Shown here piece after piece: positions 9,001-12,000 of a DNA stretch of 13,210 nt. Every line of letters begins with the position of its first letter. Positions within the stretch are counted from its first letter, which is position 1. This stretch comes from a virus (lineage: Duplodnaviria; Heunggongvirae; Uroviricota; Caudoviricetes): the IMG/VR virus record IMGVR_UViG_2671181040_000012; one strand, 5' to 3'. The position numbers were made by a program.

Positions 9001-12000
9001 CGAATACCCAGAACAGGGATTGCCTCGTTTACATTAACAGTGACGGAGGTTTGCCCTTTCTGAACCTGCGCATCAAGGTTAGTTACCGCATCACCCGTTT
9101 TTACTTCCCACGGAGTTACCTTCGCTACCGGAGTCAGTGTACCGCCAATTACTACAGAAGTACCATTACCGTTTTGCCCCCAGCCAGAAGCCATCGCTGA
9201 ACAAGACACCACAGCAGAAGCCGCTACTGCCAGCGCAATCAGTGTTTTTTTCATTGAAAGATTCCCTATAAACATTAACTGAATAAAAACAGCAACCAGA
9301 TAAAAACATTCATATCAAAAGTGTTACTGTTTACCCGTAAACATCACAAACGTTGCAATTCACGTTGTCTTTAAAAAAGTACGGGAGTATCCTCCCGTAA
9401 ATTAGAAAGACTCTGATTGCTTACTTGTTATTGTTTACAGGGACGCATGTTAGAGTTTAATCGGACATTAGTTTTTAAACTAATGCTTCCCCTTCCGTAT
9501 ATTCTCTTTATTTACCGTCATCGCACTGACCTGTATTCAGCAGGCTGTTCCGTGGCACATCCCGGGATATTTAATTACGCCTTACGGTAGCTATTTCCTG
9601 CGGGTCCTTTCCGGAACCATTAACACCACGGGGCGGCAGACGCGCAGATTTTCACTATTTATGAAAATTTTTCCGGGAAAAAGCATGTCGGTACTTCTTG
9701 CATGTAACATTATGTTTTTATTGAAACTAACTATCATAAACATACGACACCATAACGCCGGAAAATCCCGTTTTTCAGGCGTTTCATGTCGGAGGTGGTT
9801 TTTGATGAGGATTTGATAAATGAATGTTAACAAAAAGAGACTGGCAGAGATTTTCGGTGTTGATCCGCGCACAATTGAACGCTGGCAGATGCAAGGGCTT
9901 CCCCATGTATCTGGTGGCGGAAAAGGTGTGGAGGTGACTTTCGACTCTGCACAGGTGATCGAATGGTATGTACAGATGGAGAAGGAGATCGAAAACGAAA
10001 AACTCCGCAGGGATCTTGATGATTTACGTGCTGCTGGTGAATCAGATTTACAGCCAGGCACAACAGAGTACGAACGCTACCGCCTCACCAGAGCACAGGC
10101 TGACGGGCAGGAACTGAAGAACGCCAGGGAGACAGGAGAGGTTATAGATACCGGCTTTTGTATGTATGCACTGTCTAAACTGGCGCAACAGATTTCAACC
10201 ATCATGAATAGCTTGCCCCTTACGATGCAAAGGCAGTTTCCCGCGATGACTCCGGCAATGATCGATGGCCTGAGGAGGGAAACAGCACGCGCCTGTAATG
10301 CGTGCGCTAAAACTGCCGATAACCTGCCTCGCATTCTGGGAGACTATCTGATGGAAACAACCGGAAACGTGCCGGAGAAATTACGGCAACAGAAAGGTGA
10401 GTGACAGCCGCGCAATTATTGAACAAAACTGAGAAAGGATCTGATAACGTCATTTTTGGCCCAGAATGACCACTGTCAGATCCTTTCTTTTTTTGATGAT
10501 TTTACGATTAAACAATGAGTTACAGAGAAGAAGAACGGATCTGACTTTTCCCGAAAAATTTTCATAAATAGTGAAAATCTGCGCGTCTGCCGCCCCGTGG
10601 TGTTAATGGTTCCGGAAAGGACCCGTGAAAATTCCCCGCCCCTCGCGGCACTGTGAAAGGTGTTTTTTAGGGAGCCCCTTTTCAGCCCATAAAACTGAAA
10701 AAATAGCGGTTTTTTAGTCTGCTGGTGGAGTGAGTTTTTTTTAACGATGCCAGCAATGGCGCGGGTTTGGCGTGGTTTTCTCTGATAGGTTTTATCTATC
10801 AAGTCTGTGCACACCTTCCCAAAAAAAAGTTTTCGAACCTGCGGCGATGTGAATAAGGGTTGGCGGGCGGTCCCGGACAGCCAGGGCTGCAGGGATTTGA
10901 TCCGCCCCTCCCGTTGATGATAACCGTTATCAATTGCCCAACCAGCCGGATAGTGACATATCGTGACGCGCCGTGACACTGCCACCAGCACAATAATGAA
11001 CGTAAAAAATCACATACCAGGAATGCGACGGCCTGAAGCATTGCCAGAACTCCCCATACCACCACAGCGGAGAACGGCAAAGCACAGATAAAAAAATACC
11101 CCGTGATTACGGGGCGGAAGGATAACAGCCATCAGGAAATGTTAGCTACCACAAAGCAAATAACCATGAACAACGATTAAGAGTACGGAGAATAACCGTT
11201 CGTTCATGCCAGATAATGCCATCAGGCCAGGACGATGGCAACGCACTGGCTATAACGCATCGCCACCAGCCTTGTGGGTTATCACGTAGCAGTACCGGGA
11301 TCCCGGTATCGTGATGCGGCATGATTCAGCGATAAGCATCACCGCTCCCGCTCACATTTGACACAGGCAACTCCATCTGGCAGGTGAAAATCAGATTTAT
11401 TTATATATTTCAATTAATTGCGAACTGGTCTAATGACAGGGGAGAAAAAAGATTGTACAGGTAAAAACAGAAATAACTTTTAATTATCAATACATTACCA
11501 CACATGCTGCCGCCGCCATGAAAATGCAAAAACCAGCCTTTTTTCGCGCGTCCATCGCCCCGCGGTAAGGGTACCCCACCAGGAGGACCCACGACGATCG
11601 GGGTATTTCATCAACGTCATGCGTTATGCCGGATTAGGTGCGTACGTAATACGTATGCACATCCCGGACAGGAGCAGCCAGAATTGCGCCTCTGACGTTG
11701 TTTTGTGGTTATCCCCCTGCCATGAGTCATCGCAATAGTTTTATGCGCCCTGCGTTGCGCTGGTGGGCTTTTCCACCATTGGTGGGAAACATGGCACCAC
11801 ATCCACCAGCTTAAACGCGCTTCACCTTCCCGGCATCAGTCGCCACAATTACGGCATTGTTTTCCATCACCCTGGAGGCCATGACAATGACCGAAGCCGA
11901 AATGCTCAAAATGATTCGCCAGATTGCCGGGATCAGACCACCAGCAGGCAAACAGGAGGCCACGCAGCCGGACAGCGTTATCGCTGAGAACTATGCGCGT

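Follow-up and report, generated by a model that had tools for sequence, protein, structure and literature searches.

Content of the locus

We analysed the IMG/VR virus record IMGVR_UViG_2671181040_000012, a stretch of 13,210 nucleotides (hereafter the window), which is a cos-type satellite of Escherichia coli of the phage-inducible chromosomal island (PICI) type, integrated at tRNA-Pro. An island 99.9% identical to the window is found in E. coli MB06102, where it measures ~14 kb and occupies the site tRNA-Pro/yejM ... yejO. The packaging region of this satellite carries a gene for a Nu1-family small terminase subunit (terS) enclosed by the two arms of a long inverted repeat. A preliminary annotation made from the letters of the window (the sequence-only reading) had described a lone Nu1-like terS between two inverted lambda-like cos cores, and this description holds: the protein matches Pfam family PF07471, and no large terminase subunit gene (terL) was found in the window or in the island.

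The repeat is also real. A repeat search gave arms of 80 nt, 98% complementary and 865 nt apart, at 9601-9680 and 10546-10625, the second arm having been placed one base off (10547-10626) in the sequence-only reading. Pairwise alignment showed that the differences between the arms are single-base indels at their inner edge (TTTTTCCGGGAAAAAG vs TTTTTCGGGAAAAG) and that a weaker similarity extends ~40 nt further inward. The next-longest inverted repeat in 6.7 kb (73 nt, 89%) is likewise a cos pair; since the other, non-cos inverted repeats are short (at most 53 nt) and of ~70-80%, a chance origin of the repeat is excluded.

On alignment to lambdoid phages, each arm is the predicted cosQ-cosN-I2 core of a complete cos site, and these two putative sites, cos1 and cos2, face each other across terS (Table 1). 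The module is compact, two 190-nt cos leaders abutting the 585-nt gene. Moreover, this inner pair is one half of a nested set of four predicted cos sites.

The two inner cos sites

Both copies, each in its own orientation, were aligned with the cos regions of lambda, phage 21, PhiR5_1, Gifsy-1 and a SerU prophage remnant. They align column by column with the cos of lambda, phage 21 and Gifsy-1 through cosQ, cosN, I2, R3, R2 and R1, and the cosQ motif GGGTCCTTTCC, ~20-30 bp upstream of cosN, is kept in all ten aligned cos sites. A profile built from 14 cos cores matched cos1 at 9602-9675 (E=7.8e-20) and cos2 at 10624-10550 (E=3.2e-20). In both sites R3 lies inside the interval known for lambda R3 (bp 50-65; PMC9026076), at bp 54-61 in cos1 and bp 53-64 in cos2.

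The cosB-like region previously noticed between the first core and the gene (cosB1) was confirmed by alignment of its R boxes to phage 21, the record of which annotates R3, I1, R2 and R1. It has the lambda-type composition, namely R3, I1, an inverted R2 and R1 followed by terS at about bp 190, with CATGTCGG boxes at 9684 and 9785. The ATG of terS is at bp 190 of cos1, vs 191 for Nu1 in lambda, and the DNA similarity of the cos-terS segment to phage 21 and PhiR5_1 amounts to 72-75%.

The second copy had been taken for a cosN segment only. It is instead predicted to be a complete cos with canonical cosQ, cosN and I2 and with its own Gifsy-1-type cosB (cosB2), in which R3, R2 and R1 are canonical. 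Three CAGATCC[G/T]TTCT boxes are present there, vs 0.10 expected, in the orientations -, +, - (R3, inverted R2, R1). Moreover, IMG/VR contig L023, a bona fide lambdoid phage contig in which cos is followed by terS, terL and head genes, has the same 37 nt over the I2 and R3 of its cos. Similarity to phage sequences stops after R1, where no cognate terS follows: the cos2 leader meets the 3' end of the opposite-strand terS, its bp 190 (10406) falling 2 nt beyond the stop codon of that gene. The strong terminator formerly assigned to this place exists as a hairpin (-33.1 kcal/mol, z=-6 and then U7, by folding) but corresponds to the R2/R1 pair of cosB2; it was not called by a simple terminator scan, the loop being too long. 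Together with its T-run, this hairpin may also terminate terS on the plus strand.

Across the 14 islands with an intact module, mean pairwise identity is 97.2% for cosB2 (9% variable columns), 93.6% for terS, 89% for cosB1 and 81-87% for the cores. Within cosB2, none of the 36 R-box bases varies, vs 13 of the 111 other bases (hypergeometric estimate, p about 0.02), and a run of 62 nt (10507-10568) is invariant. Such a pattern speaks for constraint on cosB2, or for uniformity maintained through exchange with phages, and against a decaying scar. The recombination-scar and decoy roles envisaged in the sequence-only reading fit poorly with a cosB2 that is the most conserved part of the module.

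Table 1. Features of the window, those of the packaging region first (cos features are predicted; primes denote R boxes of cos2)
Feature	Positions	Strand	Remarks
cos1 core	9601-9680	+	cosQ GGGTCCTTTCC from 9602, then cosN and I2-like TTTATGAAAATTTTT
cos1 presumed cohesive end GGGCGGCAGACG	9631-9642	+	12 nt, predicted from sequence
cosB1, phage-21 type	9681-9819	+	R3, inverted R2-like, R1
cosB1 R3 CATGTCGGTACTTCTT	9684-	+	bp 54-61 from cohesive end
cosB1 R2-like ACGACACC	about 9746-9756	inverted	aligns with phage 21 R2
cosB1 R1 CATGTCGGAGGT	9785-	+	
terS, Nu1-family small terminase, 194 aa	9820-10404	+	Pfam PF07471, E=1.3e-69; PHROG 57
cosB2, Gifsy-1 type	10405-10545	-	three R boxes
R1'	10443-10432	-	
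R2'	10477-10488	inverted	
R3' CAGATCCGTTCT	10543-10532	-	identical to Gifsy-1 R3
cos2 core	10546-10625	-	cohesive-end sequence 10584-10595; cosQ ends at 10624; same core as cos1
cosA, outer left cos	7958-8174 (core 7958-8030)	+	leader reaches start of degraded DUF1441-type terS
DUF1441/PHROG-141-type terS remnant	8175-8397	+	short pieces; intact in L004, L011, L016, L017, L019
cosD, outer right cos	11385-11590 (core 11518-11590)	-	no gene after cosD
F4 (K88)-family fimbrial subunit gene, orphan	8463-9275	-	beside DUF1441-type terS remnant
Tyrosine integrase	1-1242	+	satellite backbone (1-5971)
AlpA regulator (PF05930)	1768-1974	+	satellite backbone
DUF4222 protein	3537-3851	+	satellite backbone
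DUF927 primase-type replication protein	3848-5971	+	satellite backbone
Single-stranded DNA-binding protein (SSB)	6571-6993		between backbone and packaging region (genes up to 7850)
ProQ/FinO-domain protein	7030-7566		between backbone and packaging region
PerC-family regulators, two	7563-7850 and 12902-13210		one on each side of packaging region; 42% identical to each other

The island small terminase

The match of the island TerS to PF07471 covers its full length (233.4 bits vs a cut-off of 30), and the protein also matches the lambda TerS structures 6hn7_B and 1j9i (E=9e-39 for residues 1-98 vs 6hn7_B). Phage 21 gp1 has the very same recognition helix, VDPRTIERWQ; the corresponding helix reads DVRT(I/V)T(A/G)WQ in the phages with CAGATCC boxes (L023, Gifsy-1 and SerU) and IRTIQNWQ in lambda. 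Thus PRTIERWQ is paired with CATGTCGG boxes (the island and phage 21) and VRTITAWQ with CAGATCC boxes (L023, Gifsy-1, SerU). Since its recognition helix is of the kind that goes with 21-type R boxes, we consider terS as cognate to cos1 and not to cos2.

The C-terminal tail of the protein is satellite-specific: conserved among the islands, it is unlike that of all phage TerS and ~12 aa longer. In lambda, the C-terminal part of TerS contacts TerL (PMC9026076). Variable terS columns in the 14 islands are distributed 22/23/72 over the three codon positions, which indicates purifying selection on the gene. The partner terL, which overlaps the end of terS in the phage comparators, is not encoded in cis. 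No rppA homologue was detected in the window by tblastn, and RppC (6hlk) resembles the island TerS in the helix-turn-helix part alone (E=0.009). A scan of the genome contigs with the TerS protein returned no relatives.

In some relatives, terS is deleted or frameshifted. The same internal deletion, which leaves ~20 nt at the start of the gene and ~60 nt at its end, was seen in L004 (12206-12305), L016 and L019; in these three islands both flanking cos sites are intact and the DUF1441 terS is intact instead.

A nested array of four cos sites

The outer pair, cosA and cosD, was exposed by comparison of the window with its relatives. As predicted from these alignments, the array is composed of four cos sites in the order + + - -, each of them similar to the cos of a different lambdoid lineage. 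CosA shares 88-91% identity with its counterparts in phages mEp460, phi458 and Ayreon. CosD aligns at 88-91.5% identity with phages cdtI, Tritos and HannyBb at their left end, from record bp 13 onward, beside the cohesive end, and its core is 89% complementary to the cosA core (73 nt).

The DUF1441 protein of the relatives was considered as a candidate Rpp and rejected, as it has no PDB match and as PHROG 141 is labelled 'terminase small subunit'; it is a second type of TerS. In the window, the F4-type fimbrial gene is apparently cargo that displaced most of the DUF1441-type terS. L010 (6067-8493) and L015 carry other cargo instead of the fimbrial gene: between their terS module and outer cos lie genes for an S-type pyocin with its immunity protein and for a PAAR protein.

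Distribution in islands and phages

All 18 islands with this terS module, among them the three in which terS is internally deleted, have their cos sites in the order (+,-) or (+,+,-,-), the relatives carrying either two or four sites. The arrangement cos(+), rppA(+), cos(-), followed by the same 104-aa gene, was found in all 23 complete RppA-type PICIs retrieved from IMG/VR. A single cos is present in the phage loci with DUF1441 TerS (42/42), and phage L023 has exactly one; multiple cos sites are thus a satellite trait. The opposed orientation is the rule in terS and rppA modules, without being universal. One island outside the 18, L137, has kept terS and the 21-type cos, with no Gifsy-type cos downstream. 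In L137 we also observed two opposed cos cores ~310 bp apart (4070 and 4383) with no gene between them.

An assembly artefact was ruled out, the module recurring in many independent complete genomes and IMG/VR contigs. The same layout is found in some islands located inside prophages or at other attachment sites. For instance, the island L002 (E. coli PapRG-04-4, locus 2796-13354) combines the terS module with its own major capsid and decoration genes and lies inside a prophage, between the head and contractile-tail genes; it is a helper-embedded satellite, a category already described (PMC10111431). The 16-kb vB_EcoS-606R10, examined as a possible packaged satellite, was found to be a partial phage genome.

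cosN alleles, conversion and inversions

Two cosN alleles were distinguished: a G type, GGGCGGCAGACG, and a T type, e.g. GGTACGGGTACG, in which positions 3-9 of the overhang vary and G1, G2, A10, C11 and G12 are kept. The G type beside cosB1 is combined with the T type beside cosB2 in nine islands, seven are T/T, and G/G occurs in this island alone. The T type is probably a working cosN, since it is also found ahead of a Nu1-like terS in the 47-kb phage contig L133 (6574). The 80-bp identity stressed by the sequence-only reading is thus present here but peculiar to this island, the cores of 16 relatives being ~76% alike or sharing the cosN part only. Given that the arms are ~76% identical in the other islands, we attribute the perfect 80-bp repeat to recent conversion. 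The general feature is thus two different opposed cos sites, here apparently homogenised by such an event. The 12-nt cohesive end also differs widely between closely related islands (e.g. L002 12945-13024 and L012 5003-5082), and satellites may diversify their sticky ends.

The island operon and the conserved flanks served as references for scoring orientation. All four states of the two nested segments were found, with breakpoints in the cos cores: (i) inner segment as in the window (L002, L018, L020 and L021), (ii) inner segment inverted (L004, L011, L012, L016, L017 and L019), (iii) whole region between the outer sites inverted (L009 and L014) and (iv) both inversions (L010, L013, L015 and L022). 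Flipping of the interior leaves the flank-specific cosQ-cosN spacers beside their flanks (L002 vs L012), and the arms are mosaic; both facts indicate crossovers inside the cores, accompanied by gene conversion. No invertase gene was found near the repeats (the sole recombinase, the integrase, lies 8 kb off), and each lineage keeps its own orientation, so that rare events of homologous recombination offer the most economical account. A flip driven by terminase is at most a theoretical option for islands with identical overhangs, such as this one.

Megablast matches that stop exactly at 9601 and 10625 made a mobile cassette bounded by the repeat a candidate; it was rejected, the flanks being conserved but rearranged. 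Since the repeat boundary coincides with the edge of cosQ and the flanks are conserved, it is better explained by functional constraint and inversions.

Comparison with known systems

The statement of the sequence-only reading that such an arrangement had not been described was too strong, since the E. coli island EcCICFT073 was reported with two functional cos sites (PMC6092414, PMC6739421). Both of these sites drive plasmid transfer, and, for the island itself, deletion of cos1 reduces transfer, deletion of cos2 increases it and the double deletion abolishes it (PMC6092414). RppA-TerS recognises the cosB of cos1 only (PMC6739421). We located the published cos sequences in CFT073 (L024) and found cos1 at 9738 (-), rppA at 9607-9173 (-) and cos2 at 8928 (+): the two sites are opposed around rppA, an orientation that is not stated in the portions of the published texts covered by our search.

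Both elements are E. coli cos-type PICIs with two cos sites of similar lambda-like cosQ/cosN and different cosB flanking a specificity gene. In both, this winged-helix gene follows cos1, the opposed cos2 lies just past its 3' end and the PHROG 1561 gene is a neighbour. They differ in that the window encodes a true Nu1-family TerS (PF07471) and not an Rpp forming a heterodimer with the helper TerS, and in that cosB1 is of the three-R-box phage-21 type, not Rpp-specific, with a cosB2 of Gifsy-1 type. The window also has two extra outer cos sites, and inversions are frequent in its relatives, vs 0/23 in the RppA modules sampled. The structure is therefore a variant of the EcCICFT073 two-cos module in which a true TerS replaces Rpp, and what it adds is incremental. 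Four points appear to be new: opposed orientation as a rule, a four-site array matched to four phage lineages, recurrent inversions at cos and the conversion behind the 80-bp identity. Literature searches on inverted or opposed cos and on Nu1-type TerS in PICIs yielded nothing beyond PMC6092414, PMC6739421 and the Murialdo-Feiss review (PMC9026076); in the parts accessible to the search, these texts mention neither a two-cos module built around a Nu1-type TerS nor any array of three or more cos sites.

With lambda, 21 and Gifsy-1, the island shares the order cosQ, cosN, I2, R3, I1, R2, R1, the start of terS at ~bp 190 and a TerS recognition helix that co-varies with the R-box sequence. These phages carry a single cos, and their terL overlaps terS at its end, whereas the island has four cos sites, no terL and a longer TerS C-terminus. 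Staphylococcus aureus pathogenicity islands (SaPIs) resemble it in having their own TerS that redirects the helper TerL (SaPI1, SaPIbov1) or a copied helper cos (SaPIbov5/SaPIbov4), and SaPIbov4 is reported to have two putative cos sites (cited in PMC6092414). However, SaPIs are Gram-positive elements of unrelated sequence, their TerS serves pac (headful) phages, and the extracts searched describe no array of opposed or nested cos sites in them. Finally, flip-flop isomers formed by general recombination between large inverted repeats (chloroplast inverted repeat, 2-micron plasmid) and the Hin, Gin and shufflon systems also present both orientations, nested segments giving four isomers. The latter differ by their dedicated invertase, an enzyme that is missing here; the repeats of the island are predicted packaging sites, 73-80 nt long, and its orientation is fixed within lineages, a sign of rare events and not of a fast switch. 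The hallmarks of site-specific invertible elements, an adjacent invertase and short dedicated crossover sites, are thus absent, the crossover regions being the cos cores.

Proposed function and alternatives

In lambda, initiation requires cosN and a cognate cosB, the terminase stays on the cosB side and packages that way, and termination requires cosQ and cosN (PMC9026076). Applied to the predicted sites, these rules would direct packaging both ways from the opposed pairs, and on this point the suggestion of the sequence-only reading can be kept. We propose, with a probability of roughly 0.55, that the four opposed cos sites broaden the helper range of the satellite. Induction of a helper would lead to excision of the island and to its replication into concatemers, on which a helper terminase matching one of the four cosB types would nick the adjacent cosN. 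Packaging would then proceed away from cosQ, rightward from the plus-strand sites and leftward from the minus-strand sites, and in either direction a concatemer would provide whole island units, ending at the next copy of the same site. By analogy with the TerS of SaPIs and of PICI-like elements (PLE), the island TerS, which would also serve cos1, presumably recruits the helper TerL. If termination is polar, with cosQ having to be met before cosN as in lambda, a site in the opposite orientation would be no terminator for a motor started at its partner. Moreover, inverted repeats would invert rather than delete the gene between them, a possible, although not obligatory, reason why opposed pairs persist. 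Homologous recombination between the shared cores would have repeatedly inverted the segments and, here, also converted one core.

Several observations weigh against this proposal. First, cos1 is just 72-75% identical to known 21-type phages. The cosN beside cosB2 varies within its 12-nt overhang among islands, which could mean relaxed constraint, and the conservation of cosB2 itself could partly reflect a role as terS terminator or recent gene flow from phages. Another satellite family (L053-L087, IMG/VR) has two cos sites that point the same way at a distance of ~2.5 kb, in the order cdtI-type cos, mEp460-type cos, DUF1441 terS, so that avoidance of cross-termination is not an absolute rule; same-strand pairs in four-site islands likewise stay exposed to it. 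Finally, deletion of cos2 in EcCICFT073 raised transfer by lambda and phi80, and a second cos can therefore be a cost (PMC6092414).

The best-surviving alternative, which we nevertheless hold to be unlikely, considers cos2 (and cosD) as non-functional relics, either harmless or, for cos2, kept as the terS terminator through the R2/R1 hairpin. The lack of a cognate gene after cos2 or cosD is in line with it, as are the stability of the hairpin (-33.1 kcal/mol, z=-6, U7), the increase of transfer on cos2 deletion in EcCICFT073 (PMC6092414), the variable overhang of the cosN beside cosB2 and the loss of terS by deletion or frameshift in some relatives. However, R3' and I2 are outside the hairpin and nevertheless belong to the 62-nt run invariant in 14 islands, whereas 20% of the terS columns vary, and the full-length cos leader (~190 nt) has been kept up to the terS stop codon. 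A relic would also not account for the opposed right-hand cos of every RppA-type island examined, nor for the cos2 of EcCICFT073 being functional on a plasmid.

A more elaborate version of the helper-range proposal, which we find rather doubtful, would make the array an adaptive adaptor for four terminase specificities. Its cores would double as crossover points (through RecA, Red-type recombinases or terminase re-annealing), reshuffling the facing of the cos sites, moving cosN alleles and possibly allowing packaging into the chromosome on both sides.

We judge quite improbable the idea that the sites act as a decoy or trap, loading the helper terminase in opposed directions with motors that collide or run off, to the detriment of helper packaging. 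Helper-like cosB regions without a cognate gene would suit such a trap, opposed motors would meet within 0.9 kb, and interference with helper packaging is an established trait of PICIs (PMC6739421). However, cuts at both sites would destroy the concatemer of the island itself, a few sites per island copy would be a weak sink, the interference known in this group is protein-based (Rpp) and the cloned cos2 of EcCICFT073 promotes transfer, with no block.

Still less credit is given to a programmed, reversible inversion switch at the cos pairs, toggling the orientation of terS and the facing of the cos sites by recombination or by terminase cuts and re-annealing. Four orientation combinations do exist in nature with breakpoints inside the cos cores, and, by sequence logic, the identical cores and 12-nt overhangs of the window would let cut fragments re-join either way. 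In most islands, however, the arms are ~76% alike with different overhangs. Orientation tracks lineage, with no variation among near-identical islands, none of the 23 RppA-type modules is inverted, no invertase lies nearby (the only recombinase, the integrase, is 8 kb away) and mosaic arms are expected from ordinary homologous recombination with conversion.

In situ packaging from the integrated island into the chromosome both ways, as a bidirectional lateral transduction of host genes resembling lambda-doc, seems very far-fetched even though an unexcised lambda prophage classically packages in situ with a fixed polarity and, by lambda rules, the plus-strand sites point to yejO-narP-ccm and the minus-strand sites through the island to tRNA-Pro-yejM, because proper termination by cos terminases depends on a further cos downstream, packaging of excised concatemers explains the arrangement equally and the same layout exists in islands inside prophages or at other attachment sites.

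The helper-range proposal bears on how Gram-negative PICIs secure packaging by many helpers. EcCICFT073, the only case studied so far, employs Rpp and a private cosB. The window suggests another route, in which complete cos sites would be collected from several phage lineages and placed head-to-head, with an own TerS for one of them. If this is correct, the helper range would be readable from the sequence, the cosB type predicting the helper TerS type, and the cos2 of EcCICFT073 would be given a role. Packaging sites would also appear as recombination hot spots that restructure the island, and in PICI-based delivery the addition of opposed cos sites could broaden the usable helpers without cross-termination.

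Island backbone and neighbouring genes

The gene content of the window corresponds to that of Gram-negative PICIs as defined by Fillol-Salom 2018, with an integrase at one end, AlpA, a pri-rep gene and an own attachment site. These islands have a unidirectional operon and a size of ~10-15 kb (PMC6092414). Neither lysis genes nor a virion gene set were found in the island, and no Rfam family was found in the window. Near the right-hand cos, on its cosQ side, lies a conserved 104-aa gene (PHROG 1561; 11857-12171 in the window), present in both terS-type and rppA-type islands; it directly adjoins the right-hand cos in two-cos islands and has homologues in L024-L047.

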